NCBI GenBank assembly: GCA_040767965.1
Contig: JAXGNR010000008.1
Coordinates: 70,614 to 134,613, forward strand
From: Atribacterota bacterium
Lineage (GTDB): Bacteria; Atribacterota; Phoenicimicrobiia; Phoenicimicrobiales; Stramentimicrobiaceae
Reading direction: 5' to 3'
Length of the DNA stretch: 64,000 bases
This document shows, piece after piece, positions 18,848-63,602 of the stretch. The notes under the pieces were generated by a model. That model had not been told where the DNA came from and did no database searches. It worked only from the letters and a program-made list of their open reading frames with translations. Made by a program: the position numbers and the translations under genes. The stretch's first letter is position 1. Each line of letters begins with the position of its first letter.

Positions 18848-18937
18848 GAGGTTGAAAAAGGCAAACTATTCGAAAGAATAGGGCGCAAAGTACTGGGTCT
18901 AAAGCATAAATGCTAAGATTGCCAGACTACCGACTTC
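18848..18937 (+). ncRNA. c-di-GMP-I (GEMM) riboswitch, aptamer 1 of a tandem pair
   Basis: GGCAAAC-TATTC-GAAA-GAATAG-GGCGCAAAG...GGGTCTAA...GCCAGACTACC consensus, followed by a U-tract. Confidence 0.92.
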
Positions 18938-18972
18938 TTTTTCTTTTGACAAAAAAATATAAAAGACAATTG

Positions 18973-19060
18973 AGTTGAAAAAGGCAAACTATTCGAAAGA
19001 ATAGGGCGCAAAGTTATGGGCCTACAGTCTTTCAAGACTATGGCTGCCAAACTACCAACT
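18973..19060 (+). ncRNA. c-di-GMP-I (GEMM) riboswitch, aptamer 2 of a tandem pair
   Basis: Same P2 (41 nt identical to copy 1), GGGCCTAC...GCCAAACTACC, followed by a U-tract. Confidence 0.92.
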
Positions 19061-27127: not shown

Positions 27128-27355
27128 ATGCCAAACTATAATTATGAATGTCAGGATTGTCAGCATGTTTTTGAGGTTACAGCCTCAATTAAAGATATGG
27201 AGAAAGGTAGTTTCCCCTGTCCTAAATGTTACAGCAAAAAGACTAAAAGACTTTTTGACGGATTTGGTTATTGCGATAAAAGCGGAAGCAGCTCTACTTC
27301 CAGAAACAGCTACACAGCTCCTACATGAGGAGCAGGAAATGCCTGTTCTCTGTAA
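27128..27355 (+). CDS. FmdB-family zinc-ribbon protein, probable selenoprotein (UGA 27326-27328 read as Sec; ends at 27328 if not)
   Basis: MPNYNYECQDC...CPKC after an AAGGAG RBS; in-frame TGA then GAGNACSL-TAA; hairpin with loop G 24 nt after the UGA. Confidence 0.8.
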
Positions 27356-41671: not shown

Positions 41672-41761
41672 AGATTGATAAAGGCAAACTATCCGAAAGG
41701 GTAGGACGCAAAGTTATGGGTCTAAGACATGTATCTGCTATGACTGCCAGACTGCCGATTT
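41672..41761 (+). ncRNA. c-di-GMP-I (GEMM) riboswitch
   Basis: GGCAAAC-TATCC-GAAA-GGGTAG-GACGCAAAG...GGGTCTAA...GCCAGACTGCC then a U-rich tract. Confidence 0.93.
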
Positions 41762-54523: not shown

Positions 54524-54774
54524 GATAACAGGAAAGACTTTCTCTGGATTTAGGGAAAATTTAGAGAAAGCGCCCAAGGGGAAATATACCAAAATAAATG
54601 GTATTGAAACCTACCGGTACAACAGACTGTTATCAGACAGAACTCTGGAGAGCTTTTGGATAGAAAAGCACCGAAGAGGCAATTCCCCAGGCCTTAGGAA
54701 GGTCAAGCAGGGTTTTGCACAAAAGTGTTTCTCCTAATCCCTTTGGAAGAATCTTTCAGGTTAAAAGACAGAGT
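54524..54774 (+). ncRNA. Tandem glycine riboswitch (degenerate aptamer 1; aptamer 2 with a long insertion)
   Basis: Aptamer 1 P1 gataacag/ctgttatc; aptamer 2 CTCTGGAGAG...CACCGAAG..GCAA...TCTTTCAGG...GACAGAG. Confidence 0.85.
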
Positions 54775-54804
54775 AAGATATTTTATCTTATTCTGTCTTT
54801 TTTT
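54763..54804 (+). terminator. Riboswitch expression-platform terminator
   Basis: aaaagacagagtaagata-ttt-tatcttattctgtcttttttt; its 5' arm overlaps aptamer-2 P1. Confidence 0.85.
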
Positions 54805-58183: not shown

Positions 58184-58411
58184 TTATTCAAAAATAGCAT
58201 CAAATTCTATTTTATTTTCTCTTAATATTCTTTCTATTTTTGGCCTATCAACGGAATTAAAGCTCAGGCATATCCCGCAATCAGAGCTTAAATGGCGGGG
58301 TACCGGGATAAGTTTAACAATAAGTCCCTGTTTCTTTGCTAAGCTTTCTGTTTTAATAGCTCCGCTGGTTGAATAAAAGATAACAACACTTTTTGGTCCT
58401 GATTCAGTCAT
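58184..58411 (-). CDS. DUF3343 family protein
   Basis: F.STS.AIK.E, IPVPRHLSSDCG; last gene of the yedE operon; ATG 58411 preferred over 58483. Confidence 0.85.
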   Translation of the reverse strand: MTESGPKSVVIFYSTSGAIKTESLAKKQGLIVKLIPVPRHLSSDCGICLSFNSVDRPKIERILRENKIEFDAIFE

Positions 58412-58427
58412 TTTGTTAACCTTTCTG

Positions 58428-59579
58428 TTATTTTCCTTGTGCGATTTTACTGACACCCATAACTGCTTTTTGTATATCCTCATCCGTATTAAAGAAACTC
58501 ATACCAAAACGGACAGTCCCGGTAGGGAAAGTTCCTATGGTTTTATGGGCAGCAGGAGAGCAATGCAAACCGACCCGGCACATTAGATCATATTCTTCAT
58601 CAAGCTTTAATCCGATGTCAGAAGGAGACTGGTTTTGAATATTAAAAGAAACTACAGCAACCCGATTTTCAATGTCTTCTTTCCCGTATACGGTAATTCC
58701 AGGTATTTCTTTTAAACCTGAAATTAATTTATTAGTCAGGGACATCTCCTGCTGGTGTATTTGTCTAATTCCTTTTTTTAGAATACAGTTAATTCCTGCA
58801 TTCAATCCGGCTATTCCGACTATATTTGATGTTCCGCTTTCATACAGATCAGGTAGAAAATCAGGATGGTTTTCCGATTCTGAGCGGCTGCCGGTTCCAC
58901 CAGTTTTAAGGGGGGAAATCCTGTGAATATCAACACTATCTCCTATGACTAATCCACCAGTACCTGTTGGCCCAAAGAGGCTTTTATGGCCTGTGAAGGC
59001 CAAAAGGTCAATATTATCCTTTTTCATATCTAGTGGATAGGCACCAGCTGTCTGGGCAGCGTCGACCAGAAATAGAATATTCCTTTTTCTGGCTATTTCT
59101 CCGACAGAATGGATAGGAAGCACTGTACCAGTCACATTAGAAGCATGGTTCAGGACAATCAGGGCAGTATTCTCTTTAATGGCTTTTTCAATATCTTCCG
59201 GCTCAAGAGCACCATCAGCGGAACAGGGAATTGCCTGTACCTGAACTCTCTTTTTTTCAAGTTCCCGTAAGGGACGCATAACAGCGTTATGTTCCATACT
59301 ACTGGTTATTACATGGTCTCCAGAGTGCAGTAATCCTTTTAAAACCAGGTTAATAGCTTCGGTTCCATTCAGGGTAAAAATAATTCTCAAAGGATCCGAA
59401 GAGTTAAAAAGCTCAGCCAGACTTTCCCGACATTGATAAAGAATTCTCGCGGCTTCTATGGATAGACGATGTCCTGAACGTCCGGGACTTGCACCTATAT
59501 TTTCTGTAAAATCAATGATAGCTTCTATAACCTCTTTTGGCTTTGGGTAAGAAGTAGCTGCATTGTCAAAATAAATCAT
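58428..59579 (-). CDS. Cysteine desulfurase/selenocysteine lyase family (aminotransferase class V)
   Basis: IYFDNAATSYPKP, HASNVTG, DAAQTAG, TGHKSLFGP, RVGLHCSP. Confidence 0.92.
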   Translation of the reverse strand: MIYFDNAATSYPKPKEVIEAIIDFTENIGASPGRSGHRLSIEAARILYQCRESLAELFNSSDPLRIIFTLNGTEAINLVLKGLLHSGDHVITSSMEHNAVMRPLRELEKKRVQVQAIPCSADGALEPEDIEKAIKENTALIVLNHASNVTGTVLPIHSVGEIARKRNILFLVDAAQTAGAYPLDMKKDNIDLLAFTGHKSLFGPTGTGGLVIGDSVDIHRISPLKTGGTGSRSESENHPDFLPDLYESGTSNIVGIAGLNAGINCILKKGIRQIHQQEMSLTNKLISGLKEIPGITVYGKEDIENRVAVVSFNIQNQSPSDIGLKLDEEYDLMCRVGLHCSPAAHKTIGTFPTGTVRFGMSFFNTDEDIQKAVMGVSKIAQGK

Positions 59580-59607: not shown

Positions 59608-59820
59608 CTATTTGGTTATGATTAGCAAATATTCTTCTCCTTGTTCTTTTACTTCCACCTTCCAGCCATTATTGTTAGCCATACGGGAAACATTATCTTT
59701 TGCAGTTCCTGTATCGACTAATACCTCTAAAGTACCTTCTTTAAGTTCTGTTAATTTATTCTTTACCTTTACAACCGGAAGTGGACAGGAAAGCCCTCTT
59801 ACATCAAATTTTTCACTCAT
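59608..59820 (-). CDS. TusA/YedF-family sulfur/selenium carrier
   Basis: DVRGLSCPLPV motif. Confidence 0.9.
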   Translation of the reverse strand: MSEKFDVRGLSCPLPVVKVKNKLTELKEGTLEVLVDTGTAKDNVSRMANNNGWKVEVKEQGEEYLLIITK

Positions 59821-60917
59821 GATACGGATACCTCCTTTTTCTTTTTAACTAAGTCACTCATACTAATTCCTATTAATAAACATATAATTAATCCTGTTAT
59901 AACCGAAGCTGGTCCCCAGACACCGGGCCCTGCTCCGGAGCTGGCAGTAGCAAAATTATGGGCAAAACCTGCGCCGAAAATCATTCCTAAAACAAAAACT
60001 GCAGCATCGGAATCTCCTTCTCCGGAAAGAAAAAGCTGACGTCCCGGACAGCCTCCTGCCAGCGTAAAAGCCAAGCCTGCCAAAACCATTCCACCGAAAT
60101 TCCAGATTTGACTTGTGTGGGCAACTGGCTGATTTTGAAATCCAGGATTAAACTGCCCCAATACCATATTGCTAATCCAGGCTGCTATCAATAAACTGAC
60201 TACTCCGGTAAACAGGTAAGTATCTTTAATCAAAAGAATATCTCTGGCAGCTGCAACTGTACAAAACCTGCTTCTCTGAGCAATAAAACCGATAATTAAC
60301 GCAATCAGTAAGGCTATCAGGACCGGTGCATATTGAGAACCGGGGCCTTCGGTACTGAAAAAAACTGCCTCGCTGGGCAATTGAGGTTTAAAAACTAATA
60401 ACAGTAAAAGACCTGCCATAATTGAAGGTAAAATCCAGCCCGCCAGGGGTCTGATTCTCTGGTTGCGTCCAAGATCAAAACCGGATTTGATAAAAAAGAT
60501 ACCAATAGAGATGCCAGCCACTAATCCTGCAATACCAAAGATGGCATTTCCGTCTCCTCCGGATAAACGCAGCAGGGCTCTCCATGGACAACCCAGGAAG
60601 ACCAAAGAGCCAATCATTGCCAGAAAGCCTAAGACAAAGCGGATCAGGGGAGACGAACCCCCTCTGGGTTTAAATTCTTTGAAGACCAGAGCAGCAATCA
60701 GAGAACCCAGCACAAAACCGATAATCTCAGGTCTTATATACTGAACTACTGCTGCCCGATGAAAACCTAAAGCACCGGCAATATCTCTTTCAAAACAGGC
60801 TACACAGATACCCATATTTGCAGGATTGCCCAGTTTTTGCAGGATAGTTGCCGCTATACCGATAAAAACTCCGGTAGAGATAATTAATTTCCGAGAAGAA
60901 AGTAATTTTTTTAACAT
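59817..60917 (-). CDS. yedE: YedE-family putative selenium transporter
   Basis: GNPANMGICVACFERDIAGALG, QYIRPEI, FLGCPWR, QRSRFC, GGCPGRQL. Confidence 0.9.
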   Translation of the reverse strand: MLKKLLSSRKLIISTGVFIGIAATILQKLGNPANMGICVACFERDIAGALGFHRAAVVQYIRPEIIGFVLGSLIAALVFKEFKPRGGSSPLIRFVLGFLAMIGSLVFLGCPWRALLRLSGGDGNAIFGIAGLVAGISIGIFFIKSGFDLGRNQRIRPLAGWILPSIMAGLLLLLVFKPQLPSEAVFFSTEGPGSQYAPVLIALLIALIIGFIAQRSRFCTVAAARDILLIKDTYLFTGVVSLLIAAWISNMVLGQFNPGFQNQPVAHTSQIWNFGGMVLAGLAFTLAGGCPGRQLFLSGEGDSDAAVFVLGMIFGAGFAHNFATASSGAGPGVWGPASVITGLIICLLIGISMSDLVKKKKEVSVS

Positions 60918-61117
60918 CAATATTTTCCTTTCAAATTAAGTTTTATAATATTTTTATTCAAAAAGAGTTTTCCAATAAAAAATATTTTAGTAAGTAAAAG
61001 ACAAAAGGGTATTGGTAATAACTATATCAGCTATAAATAGGTTTATTGGGTGATAATAAAATTAAAAGATAATCTGTCTTGAAACTAAGAAGTAACTTTT
61101 AATTTTTAAAAGGGGGT

Positions 61118-61237
61118 TCAATAGCCGACCGCTATTTTTTTTAAAAAATAACGTCAGCCAGGCACAAAGAAGTCAAAATCAGGAAATTCAATCATTTTTA
61201 GACTGTCATATTTATCAGACTGAATTAAGAATCTCAT
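61118..61237 (-). CDS. Putative leader peptide with in-frame UGA (MRFLIQSDKYDSLKMIEFPDFDFFVPG-U-RYFLKKIAVGY)
   Basis: ATG 61237 after purine-rich GAAAGAGAAG; UGA at 61156-61154; SECIS-like hairpin; lies upstream of yedE. Confidence 0.5.
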
Positions 61238-61344
61238 AATTTACTTCTCTTTCAAAAAATGGATAGGTATTTGAAATACTAAATGAATATTTTTAATTCA
61301 CGTATATAAATCACACCTGGATCGTCAATGCATTGTCAAGTTGC

Positions 61345-61376
61345 AAAGTTGTCAAAGGGACGGTTCTTTTGACAAC
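61345..61376 (+). repeat. REP-like imperfect palindrome, copy 1
   Basis: aaagttgtcaaagggacggttcttttgacaac. Confidence 0.85.
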
Positions 61377-61602
61377 AATTAACATTACTATTCACCTGCT
61401 AAATTACTTCAATTAACTGTAAAATAAATTTAATTGTCAGGGAATATAATCTTTTAAAAATGCAATCAGTAAACTTGATGATTGTTCTTCAAATAAGGAA
61501 AACATAGTCGATATTATTGATGTTTTTTAAGGTAGGAATGTTTGGTGTAAATTGCTAAAACATGAGAAGCTGGAAAAAGTTACCGAGTTATTGAGCTAGT
61601 AC

Positions 61603-61620
61603 AACCGTCCCTTTGACAAC
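61603..61620 (-). repeat. REP-like palindrome, partial inverted copy
   Basis: aaccgtccctttgacaac. Confidence 0.75.
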
Positions 61621-61766
61621 TACAACTATATAAAAGTTTCAAAAAATAGAATTACCCTTGACTATAAAATTATTTGTTGTTTAATATATTAATATAGTAA
61701 ACATTATGGTAGTAACATTTTTTAAAACCCTTTTTGTTAATTTTAAAGGAAAGTAAGTATAAATGC

Positions 61767-63602
61767 ATGGACCAGATTAATAAGAAAAAACTTGAATTTT
61801 TAAACAATCCTTATGTTATTCAAAGAGTGGAAGAAGCAATCATAATATGTCAACCGGAAAAGGTGACCGTAATTACTGATGCCCCTGAAGATATTAGATA
61901 TGTTAAAGAGCTGGCTATAAAAAACAAAGAGGAAAAAGAATTAGAGATAAAAGGACATACAATTCATTTCGACGGTTATTATGACCAGGGGAGAGATAAA
62001 GAGAATACCCGTTACCTCCTATCAGATAAAGTAGATTGGGGTATAGCTATTAATTCTATCGATAAAGATAAAGGCTTAGAAGAAATAAAATCATACTTCA
62101 AAGGAAGTATGAAAGGCAAAGAAATGTTAGTACGCTTTTTTTCTTTAGGCCCGAAGAATTCTTCCTTTTCAATCCCTTCATTACAAATTACTGATTCTGC
62201 TTATGTTGCGCATAGTGAAGACTTGCTTTATAGAAGCAATTATGAGGGGTTTAAGAGCTTAAATGGTTCTAACCGGTTTTTCTTTTTTCTACATTCTGCC
62301 GGAAGATTAAAGGATAATGTTAGTGTTGATATTGATAAAAGAAGAATGTATGTTGATTTGGAAGGAAATAGTGTTTATTCAGTAAATAATCAGTATGCTG
62401 GCAACTCTTTAGGCCTAAAAAAATTGTCTTTCCGTTTAGCAATTCGTAAGGCAAATGAGGAAGGCTGGCTTGCAGAACATATGTTTATCCTGGGAGTTCA
62501 CGGCAAGAAAGAGGAAACCACCTATTTTACCGGTGCTTTTCCCAGTGCCTGTGGTAAGACTAGTACTGCTATGCTGCCTGGCCAAACTATTGTTGGTGAT
62601 GATATAGCTTTTCTTAGAAAGATAAATGGAGAAGTAAGAGCAGTTAATATGGAAAAAGGAATTTTTGGAATTATTAAAGATGTAAATGAGGAAGAAGATC
62701 CGCTTATTTTCGATGCGTTAACATCTCCACGAGAAATAATATTTTCCAATGTGCTTGTAAATAATGGTATTCCCTACTGGCTGGGTATGGGAAGAGATAT
62801 TCCTGATAAAGGAATTAACCATAGCGGACAATGGTATGCTGGTAAAAAAGATGAGCAAGGCAATTTAATTGATCCATCACATAAAAATGCCAGATACACC
62901 ATTCGATTGGATGAATTATCAAATATTGATTCAGAGGCTGAAAATCCACAAGGAGTTCCTATTGATGGATTTTTTTATGGTGGAAGAGATTCGGACACTT
63001 CTATGCCGATAGTGGAATCACTTAATTGGAATCATGGCGTTTTTATAGGTGCTACAATTGAATCAGAAACGACTGCAGCTACATTGGGTAAGCAGGGAGT
63101 AAGAAGACATGATCCAATGGCTAACCAGGATTTTATATCTGTTCCTCTTGCTAATTATATTAAGAATTATCTCTCTTTTAAATACGATCTAATAAGAGTT
63201 CCAAGAATATTTGCTATAAATTATTTTTTAAAGAATACACAAGGAAATTACTTAACTCCAAAAATATATAATTTACTTTGGGTTTTGTGGGCTAATGGAA
63301 GAATTAATAAAGAATATGAGGCTATTATAACCCCAGTAGGATTAATTCCAAAGTACGAGGATTTAAAAACTATTTTTATACAGAAATTAAAAAGGAAATA
63401 TACTAAAGAGAATTATATTGAGCAATTTTCTCTCAGAATAGATAAATATCTGGAAAAGATGAATAGAATGCAAAATATTTTTTCTAATATTACCAATATA
63501 GATAATGAATTTATTAATGAATTAGATAATCAAATTGAAAGGCTGAATAATAAAAAGAGAGAATCTGGTAAAATTATTGTGTCTCCTTTTGAATTATATT
63601 AA
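61767..63602 (+). CDS. pckG: Phosphoenolpyruvate carboxykinase (GTP)
   Basis: QITDSAYV, YAGNSLGLKK, WLAEHM, AFPSACGKT, VGDDIA, H.NARY, YGGR; ATG 61767 preferred over TTG 61734. Confidence 0.92.
   Translation: MDQINKKKLEFLNNPYVIQRVEEAIIICQPEKVTVITDAPEDIRYVKELAIKNKEEKELEIKGHTIHFDGYYDQGRDKENTRYLLSDKVDWGIAINSIDKDKGLEEIKSYFKGSMKGKEMLVRFFSLGPKNSSFSIPSLQITDSAYVAHSEDLLYRSNYEGFKSLNGSNRFFFFLHSAGRLKDNVSVDIDKRRMYVDLEGNSVYSVNNQYAGNSLGLKKLSFRLAIRKANEEGWLAEHMFILGVHGKKEETTYFTGAFPSACGKTSTAMLPGQTIVGDDIAFLRKINGEVRAVNMEKGIFGIIKDVNEEEDPLIFDALTSPREIIFSNVLVNNGIPYWLGMGRDIPDKGINHSGQWYAGKKDEQGNLIDPSHKNARYTIRLDELSNIDSEAENPQGVPIDGFFYGGRDSDTSMPIVESLNWNHGVFIGATIESETTAATLGKQGVRRHDPMANQDFISVPLANYIKNYLSFKYDLIRVPRIFAINYFLKNTQGNYLTPKIYNLLWVLWANGRINKEYEAIITPVGLIPKYEDLKTIFIQKLKRKYTKENYIEQFSLRIDKYLEKMNRMQNIFSNITNIDNEFINELDNQIERLNNKKRESGKIIVSPFELY

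Follow-up and report, generated by a model that had tools for sequence, protein, structure and literature searches.

The 64,000-nucleotide (nt) stretch analysed here, called the window below (positions 70,614 to 134,613 of contig JAXGNR010000008.1, assembly GCA_040767965.1, from an Atribacterota bacterium), carries on its minus strand a selenium operon of yedE, yedF, a cysteine desulfurase gene and a DUF3343 gene. The region ahead of yedE is best explained as an approximately 330-nt 5' leader of this operon with a promoter of its own. A short upstream open reading frame (uORF) in the leader runs into an in-frame UGA, a candidate selenocysteine (Sec) codon that is also buried in a long hairpin, and the 3' arm of this hairpin can fold by itself into a stem-loop resembling a bacterial Sec insertion sequence (SECIS) or pair with an invariant segment about 100 nt downstream. 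The evidence tips modestly towards a mechanism in which the decoding of this UGA, that is, Sec insertion versus stalling or termination, chooses the RNA fold and sets transcription of the operon, probably via Rho. A more specific proposition is an attenuator keyed to the 21st amino acid, in which SelB and a SECIS recode the single UGA or else the ribosome is held there, the SECIS arm serves as the anti-switch segment, and shortage of Sec-tRNA(Sec) turns on the genes for selenium uptake (yedE/yedF) and mobilisation (desulfurase, DUF3343), along with a second selenophosphate synthetase gene, selD, in some genomes; this remains tentative, and we give it a little under an even chance. That the uORF is translated, that Sec is inserted or the ribosome stalls, that Rho takes part and in which direction the operon responds are all inferred.

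The leader lies in the 813-nt gap between yedE (59817-60920) and its divergent neighbour (61734-63602), and its features, all on the minus strand, begin with a purine-rich ribosome-binding site, GAAAGAGAAG (61244-61253), followed by a frame of 27 codons, MRFLIQSDKYDSLKMIEFPDFDFFVPG (61157-61237, ATG at 61237-61235). The UGA stands at 61154-61156 with C as the next base, and beyond it the frame continues for 11 codons, RYFLKKIAVGY, to a second TGA at 61120-61118 (post-UGA frame 61118-61153), about 198 nt before the yedE start (TTG 60920 or ATG 60917). The frame with its UGA had been described in a first-pass annotation of the window, which was made from the letters alone and proposed a Sec-sensing leader peptide, and it is present as described there.

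Fourteen distinct leaders were left for comparison after identical and truncated copies had been dropped. In these the uORF behaves as a coding frame and is presumably translated. Its ATG is conserved in 14/14 leaders, and a GAAAGAGAAG-type ribosome-binding site is nearly unchanged in 12, the other two (L022 in genome G008 and L027 in genome G020) having another purine-rich stretch ahead of the same ATG. Both indels of the uORF are in frame, namely 3 nt (one codon) in G018 and 39 nt (13 codons) in G008. Extra states are distributed as 15/19/25 over the three codon positions, the third being the most variable, and synonymous changes are found in Leu, Ile, Lys, Val, Phe and Pro codons, as well as in the Gly codon before the UGA, which changes from GGC to GGU in G001. 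The peptide end FFVPG is invariant. It is followed in all 14 leaders by UGA, never by UAA or UAG, and in 13 of them by UGA-C; the conserved uORF ending in PG-UGA upstream of yedE orthologues, as anticipated from the window, was thus recovered. The residues after the UGA vary (RYFMKK, RCFITK, PYLLTK, PFSMK), and an in-frame UAG, that of AAAUAGCGG, ends the frame 5-6 codons past the UGA in 13/14 leaders. This UAG is weaker evidence than it seems, because 12 of the 13 share the 18-nt spacing by descent; the only independent event in the spacing is the 3-nt deletion of G008.

The RNA around and behind the UGA can be described by four segments. GGCUGAC, with the UGA inside it, is segment 1, and GUCGGCUAUA, which doubles as the 3' arm of the SECIS-like hairpin, is segment 2. 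Complementary to the latter is segment 3, UAUAGCUGA (given as UUUAUAGCUGAU at 61026-61037), and AGCUA is segment 4. They can pair either as 1:2 together with 3:4, or as 2:3. The 1:2 pairing forms a long hairpin of 15 bp, P1 (61123-61159; GGCUGAC-GUUAUUUU.../...AAAAUAGC-G-GUCGGCU), in which the UGA is buried. When segment 2 folds on itself, the SECIS-like hairpin results, with AAUAGC (61136-61131), the loop GGUCG (61130-61126) and GCUAUU (61125-61120). The two hairpins are mutually exclusive, and in the window the long one is the minimum-free-energy fold (-15.4 versus -6.1 kcal/mol). Both hairpins, including their exclusiveness, had been noticed in the first-pass annotation, and both are kept in the other leaders. 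What is added here is a third partner: the invariant UUAUAGCUGA at 61037-61026, about 100 nt downstream, complements the invariant GUCGGCUAUA of the hairpin's 3' arm. Together with the in-frame UAG, it suggests a trp-like topology of 1:2, 2:3 and 3:4 pairings. Pairing of segments 3 and 4 gives hairpin 2, AUAGCU-GAUAU-AGUUAU (61018-61034).

Across the 14 leaders, 97.6% of the cells of helix 1:2 are paired, at -11 to -17 kcal/mol, and helix 2:3, which has 10 bp and two invariant arms, is 98.6% paired with a duplex energy of -12 to -15 kcal/mol, so the energies are comparable. Sliding the partners by 1-3 columns brings the pairing of both helices down to 30-51%. Hairpin 2 is AU-rich, with 4-6 bp, 78.6% paired cells and -0.4 to -5.9 kcal/mol, and an AU helix between AAAAAUUAAAA (61107-61097) and UUUUAAUUUU (61067-61058), within the spacer that separates segments 2 and 3, is 91.9% paired. 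RNAalifold returns the local hairpin from a short stretch and the long-range pairings 2:3 and 1:4 from a long one. Single-sequence folds were computed for 13 of the 14 leaders (L020 omitted); among the folds listed, the unconstrained ones contain 1:2 in every case, and those with a ribosome footprint masked at the UGA place segment 2 in the SECIS-like hairpin or in 2:3. The 3' edge of a ribosome usually lies about 15 nt beyond the first P-site base. By this geometry, ribosome coverage with the UGA in the A site would take in the 5' arm of 1:2 to about +12 and leave the SECIS-like hairpin free; with the UAG there instead, it would reach to about +33 and include most of segment 2. Sequestration of the yedE or selD ribosome-binding site was also considered and set aside: whole-leader folds, among those listed, show no consistent pairing of these sites, and long AU-rich folds are unreliable.

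The pattern of conservation follows these parts. Mean pairwise identity is 88.9% over the last 10 uORF codons, 85.4% from the UGA to the end of the hairpin (segment 2) and 81.9% over the second block about 100 nt downstream (segment 3 and hairpin 2), compared with 62.7% in the 5' untranslated region (5' UTR), 60.0% in the spacer and 48.4% past the second block.

The first loop G of the SECIS-like hairpin is the 24th base after the UGA in the window and the 23rd or 24th across the leaders. Its arms do not vary, its stem, 5 bp long in 13/14 leaders and 6 bp in the window, has -5 to -6 kcal/mol, and the loop reads GGUCA in G008 and G015. Two Sec-type genes of the same genomes offer a local standard. 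The selD SECIS of the family, represented by 16 distinct sequences, has an 8-bp stem and a GGU loop 27 nt past the UGA. An FmdB-family gene in the window (27128-27355, plus strand; TIGR02605, 45.5 bits) has an in-frame TGA at 27326-27328 (...APT-U-GAGNACSL), which aligns with a Cys of the G019 orthologue and is followed by the hairpin UUCUC-UGUAA-GAGAG, with a 5-bp stem, the stop codon within the hairpin and the loop G at +24, the same offset as in the leader, as had been claimed. Like these true bacterial SECIS elements, the leader has an in-frame UGA followed by a hairpin with a loop G, and in FmdB, too, the stop lies within the hairpin; unlike them, its stem is only 5-6 bp, competes with a stronger UGA-containing hairpin and has no Cys-type homologue of its peptide. 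With its 5-6 bp, GGUCG loop, G at +23/24 and stop in the 5' arm, the leader hairpin fits the selD/FmdB standard at the weak end. In G019, the FmdB orthologue stands directly upstream of yedE (L008), and this small Sec/Cys protein may be part of selenium handling too.

The machinery for Sec is present in the genomes concerned. The window genome has a cluster of selC (tRNA-Sec), selA, selB and a Sec-type selD, the last without the leader, and selB and a Sec-type selD score above their cut-offs in 8/8 leader genomes. Nevertheless, the restriction of the leader to Sec-decoding genomes, which had been expected, is only partly informative: selB is above its cut-off in 17/22 genomes of the family, so possession of the machinery does not mark out the leader genomes. 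All 19 family selD genes above the cut-off have one TGA. The Fdh-alpha genes of the window genome have no internal stop, and GrdA and GrdB gave no match in it, although the control genomes gave none either and absence is therefore not shown.

Between segments 2 and 3 the spacer (85 nt, 61035-61119) is a candidate Rho utilisation (rut) site. The C-rich, G-poor character ascribed to it in the first-pass annotation is real, with 19% C and 6% G, and it is kept in 14/14 leaders (C 16-26%, G 2-9%). Equally skewed 85-nt stretches make up 41,686 of 4,650,904 (0.9%) in the genome, whose G+C content is 33%, and rho is encoded there (670 bits against a cut-off of 509). On the upstream side, a TTGACA-17-TA(N)AAT promoter stands 61-85 nt before the uORF ATG in 12/14 leaders; of the two misses, the window copy fails the strict spacing (14 nt) and the contig of L020 ends 75 nt before the ATG. 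The promoter-like region of the window (61303-61355) comprises three TTGAC(A/G) repeats (61355-61350, 61339-61334, 61328-61323) and TATATA (61308-61303). These direct repeats (61323-61355), spaced by 16 and 11 nt just upstream of the leader, could be the binding site of a regulator. A separate observation is the motif ACUUCAA(A)U, which occurs twice in most leaders, once in the 5' UTR and once in the C-rich spacer (alignment A1 columns ~10-20 and ~260-270; about 61278 and 61085 in the window, minus strand).

In the proposed mechanism, a ribosome bringing the UGA into its A site would melt hairpin 1:2, and the freed 3' arm would fold into the GGUCG-loop hairpin 23-24 nt after the UGA, which is the geometry of a bacterial SECIS. 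When SelB-GTP-Sec-tRNA(Sec) is available, Sec would be inserted and the ribosome would run 5-6 codons to the UAG in the SECIS arm, covering segment 2; 3:4 would then pair, and 1:2 would re-form after release. When Sec-tRNA(Sec) is scarce, the ribosome would wait at the UGA, leaving segment 2 free to pair with segment 3 about 100 nt downstream. UGA-C is a weak stop signal, and together with the FFVPG end it may slow release at the UGA. Sec-decoding capacity would in this manner select one of two folds, as in a trp leader. Low Sec likely turns the operon on, a direction taken only by analogy with Methanococcus maripaludis, in which yedE mRNA goes up 5.3 log2-fold on selenium starvation (PMC11097638, available sections). 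The output is probably transcriptional, by Rho-dependent termination set by which fold forms. Rho is favoured because no intrinsic terminator is found, the spacer skew is kept in 14/14 leaders and rho is present. A transcriptional output is favoured because the leader serves two different first genes, yedE and selD, with different ribosome-binding sites; the stretch from hairpin 2 to the first gene also differs between these architectures, which makes control at the ribosome-binding site of the first gene unlikely and transcriptional control more likely.

The leader can be compared with several known systems. In tnaC, free tryptophan blocks release at a UGA stop and the stalled ribosome covers the rut site, and both the tnaC and the mgtL leaders act through Rho. 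The present leader shares with the tnaC and mgtL/mgtA leaders critical C-terminal peptide residues, a UGA stop, a C-rich, G-poor stretch downstream and the lack of an intrinsic terminator, in a genome that has rho. It differs from tnaC in that the signal would be SelB-delivered Sec-tRNA, and also in that its C-rich stretch starts about 35 nt past the UGA, beyond the reach of the ribosome, so that an RNA refolding step would be needed. With the trp-type attenuators (trpL, hisL, leuL, thrL) it has in common a short leader ORF preceded by a ribosome-binding site of its own, the sensed codon in segment 1, a stop at which a terminating ribosome would cover segment 2, and exclusive pairings 1:2, 2:3 and 3:4. 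In contrast to them, the sensed codon would be a recoded UGA, needing SelB and a SECIS, and it stands alone in place of a codon run; the SECIS would coincide with segment 2, which lies about 100 nt from segment 3; and 3:4 is no intrinsic terminator, which is why the leader is not a classical trp-type attenuator. The general mechanism of trp-type leaders is given in PMC3892789 (available sections).

Two further systems involve Sec directly. The element in the 5' UTR of Escherichia coli selAB is likewise a SECIS-like leader hairpin of selenium genes, serving as a feedback sensor of Sec-tRNA and SelB, but it lacks a uORF and a UGA, is separated from the Shine-Dalgarno sequence by 3 nt and acts by repressing the start of translation (10.64898/2026.03.03.709296, available sections). 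Here the hairpin comes after a presumably translated UGA and about 190-250 nt from the first gene; not being next to a Shine-Dalgarno sequence, it is not a selAB-type operator. In fdhF(Sec) of Treponema primitia, failed decoding of a Sec UGA also uncouples translation from transcription and changes the downstream transcript, whereas the UGA lies in the structural gene, whose own transcript is lowered when selenium is short (PMC3892789, available sections). The leader described here would be a dedicated peptide controlling other genes, and probably in the opposite direction.

In a literature search no description was found of a Sec-codon leader peptide or of a selenium-responsive leader before yedE or selD, in agreement with the first-pass annotation, to which no described Sec attenuator was known, and no paper was found that pairs Atribacter with selenocysteine. 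In the available sections of a 2026 review of prokaryotic selenoproteomes (PMC13188914), the terms 'leader', 'riboswitch' and 'Atribacter' do not occur, and the available sections of the M. maripaludis study state that no dedicated selenium transporter is established (PMC11097638). Bacterial selenium sensing and the control of selenium uptake are largely open, and the review and comparative papers, as far as their available sections go, name no sensor for yedE or selD. If the proposed attenuator is correct, it would be a concrete sensor that reads Sec-tRNA(Sec) availability at a UGA. Ribosome-mediated attenuation would then include a recoded stop codon with an elongation factor of its own, a SECIS would be seen doubling as a switch segment, and the view of YedE, YedF, the desulfurase and DUF3343 as a joint selenium supply line would gain support. 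The leader is potentially useful as a selenium- or Sec-responsive genetic switch.

Several observations weigh against the attenuator. There are no compensatory double changes (0/30 and 0/31 pairs in the two candidate structures), because both arms are invariant and the sequences too alike. The structures are argued from complementarity and invariance, neither is preferred on covariation, and the covarying alternative stem that the first-pass annotation had suggested looking for did not appear; its interpretation is thus partly supported, the comparative predictions having been borne out except for covariation. The 14 copies are related and hence not independent trials, and the leader is confined to a single family of uncultured bacteria, with 0/64 genomes carrying it in the other six Atribacterota families. 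The bases of the UGA also pair in hairpin 1:2, so their invariance is no proof of a coding role. The window itself is the exception to the in-frame UAG, which is shifted out of frame by one surplus base in the homopolymer stretch T6A8 (61148-61135). In DNA run X2 the contigs, which come from a near-identical strain, are one base short at 61135, and the X1 contigs match the window; the surplus is due to strain variation or to an assembly error. Among the models in Rfam are clade-specific ones for bacterial SECIS elements, and neither these nor any other model matched the leader region at the gathering score or at E values up to 10. The matches that Rfam does list are snoRNA or CRISPR models with E above 1, and they were taken as chance. 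The leader stem of 5 bp is below both the 8 bp of the same-family selD and the 6-8 bp given for bacterial SECIS elements, whose conserved loop G lies about 20 nt past the UGA (PMC4605307, available sections). No Cys-form homologue of the peptide was found, all 14 copies having UGA and neither Pfam, NCBIfam nor 5.8 billion predicted proteins offering one.

The output step and the transcription of the leader also count on this side. There are 0 terminator-like sites in 60700-61900, and hairpin 2 is weak with no U-run after it, which leaves the output step a conjecture. An internal promoter may exist immediately ahead of yedE, where AT-rich hexamers resemble promoter elements; a candidate is TGGAAA-18-TATTAT at 60974-60945, and the region has 8 promoter-like matches against 6.5 +/- 2.7 in shuffles, which is no excess. 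Among metatranscriptome contigs, run X16 gave two small ones, both inside yedE and 0 on the leader, which is uninformative on leader transcription, and run X17 gave scraps only.

It may be asked whether Sec is involved at all. Termination at the UGA may be normal and the leader may sense something else, either through a TnaC-like arrest caused by a small selenium compound or through an RNA switch, or a protein-binding one, made up of the invariant segments 2 and 3, the likeness to a SECIS being incidental. Among the alternatives this is the one that deserves most attention, though it is unlikely, at about one chance in a handful. Pairing in 1:2 would constrain the UGA regardless of Sec, the stem is short (5 bp) and unmatched by any Rfam SECIS model, and the post-UGA frame of the window is unlike that of the other leaders. 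Arrest peptides are conserved near their C-terminus, and the invariant FFVPG end resembles them. Nevertheless, both the GGU... loop and its offset from the UGA agree with those of two Sec-type genes in these genomes, the machinery for Sec is encoded in 8/8 leader genomes, and termination without Sec gives no purpose to the in-frame UAG (13/14 leaders), at which a terminating ribosome would cover segment 2. The UGA may instead be read as Sec in a protein made for its own sake, the uORF being the first cistron and encoding a true small selenoprotein that is about 34 residues long, has Sec six positions from its end and works in selenium handling, perhaps as a carrier or sensor. The full-length conservation of the peptide with its near-invariant C-terminal half, the UGA with a SECIS-like hairpin and an in-frame stop shortly after, as in the FmdB-family selenoprotein, and the constant linkage to selenium genes agree with this. 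We consider it clearly less probable than termination without Sec: the residues after the UGA are variable, and an ordinary cistron needs neither an invariant partner segment 100 nt downstream nor a non-coding gap of about 190-250 nt with a conserved base skew over its first 100 nt. No Cys homologue or other relative was found in Pfam, NCBIfam or 5.8 billion proteins, which is weak evidence.

A role for SelB outside decoding may also be envisaged. The hairpin would then be an operator like that of E. coli selAB, at which SelB loaded with Sec-tRNA represses the operon, and the uORF would only open 1:2. The invariant hairpin and the precedent of selAB, where a SECIS-like element binds SelB-GTP-Sec-tRNA and represses (10.64898/2026.03.03.709296, available sections), are in its favour, but the E. 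coli element lies 3 nt from the Shine-Dalgarno sequence, according to the same sections, and here the distance is about 190 nt (yedE) or about 250 nt (selD). Since FFVPG-UGA, the in-frame UAG and segment 3 would be left unexplained, we regard such an operator as improbable, marginally more so than the small selenoprotein. Chance deserves a mention, short ORFs and AU hairpins being common at 33% G+C. A functionless ORF and hairpin are refuted for practical purposes by 14 distinct copies with in-frame indels, conservation that peaks on the named parts and a fixed place before one operon.

As for the distribution of the leader, yedE is present in 18/41 genomes of relatives, and the element stands upstream of yedE orthologues at 5 loci. 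Pattern scans found 4 true copies among 5 matches in species-representative genomes and 11 among 14 matches in metagenome contigs; L024, L031, L037 and L040 sit in G+C-rich coding DNA and are chance pattern matches, and L030, L032 and L038 are true copies that are cut by contig ends and were excluded from the 14-leader set. BLAST and a covariance model built from the copies (R1) agree on 8/86 Atribacterota genomes, with the element in 9 places, and all of these genomes belong to the family of the window (7/21 besides the window). BLAST matches in G023, G033, G045, G046 and G076 were rejected, being 23-36 nt long and AT-rich, with E values of 4e-4 to 8e-4 and no covariance-model support. No second leader was found in the window genome. 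The leader peptide has no match in Pfam or NCBIfam, and its 48-residue form has none among 5.8 billion predicted proteins; frames so short are seldom called as genes, which makes the negative protein search weak evidence.

The leader always heads one and the same operon, and the gene order is constant wherever the contig is long enough, except in G020 (L027). The first operon gene in the window, yedE (59817-60920), has the ribosome-binding site GAAAGGAAAA at 60932-60923 and matches TIGR04112 (seleno_YedE) with 493 bits against a cut-off of 200. It is followed by the YedF/TusA gene (59608-59820), a TIGR01977 cysteine desulfurase that is SclA-like (58428-59579; 409 bits to the selenocysteine lyase SclA model, under its cut-off of 525) and the DUF3343 gene for a Se/S carrier (58184-58483; PF11823). 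The order leader-yedE-yedF-desulfurase-DUF3343 is found in G000, G006, G017 (contig C37), G018 and three metagenome contigs, and in G008 as far as the contig end allows. In G001, G015, G017 (contig C78) and two further contigs, a Sec-type selD stands between the leader and yedE. Two Sec-type selD genes are present in both G015 (contigs C12, C15) and G017 (C33, C78), and the leader-borne one is about 68% identical to the selD of the window genome; it counts as a second copy, since both genomes also retain the usual pair of selB and selD. In G020, a deletion about 150-460 nt past the leader core has removed yedE and most of yedF, so that the last 26 yedF codons precede the desulfurase gene, and this operon has perhaps also lost a selD. 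In the sister family f2 (L007, L009-L014), yedE follows xdhC, in some genomes with a Cys-type selD (…RASGCAAK…), and there is no leader; this looks like a selenium-cofactor (molybdenum hydroxylase) context, not a Sec context.

On the other side of the gap, the divergent gene at 61734-63602 encodes a GTP-type PEP carboxykinase, as named from its sequence. Between this gene and the leader, 61562-61611 (plus strand) contains 30-44 nt that match high-depth RNA contigs of run X16 (depth 22-89 per contig) at 100%, within unrelated flanks; this stretch has short matches in other runs too and one other partial copy (25 nt) in the window genome. Elsewhere in the window, Rfam reports three riboswitches of the c-di-GMP-I type, including a tandem pair, and one glycine riboswitch, all on the plus strand (18850-19059, 41674-41760 and 54635-54781).

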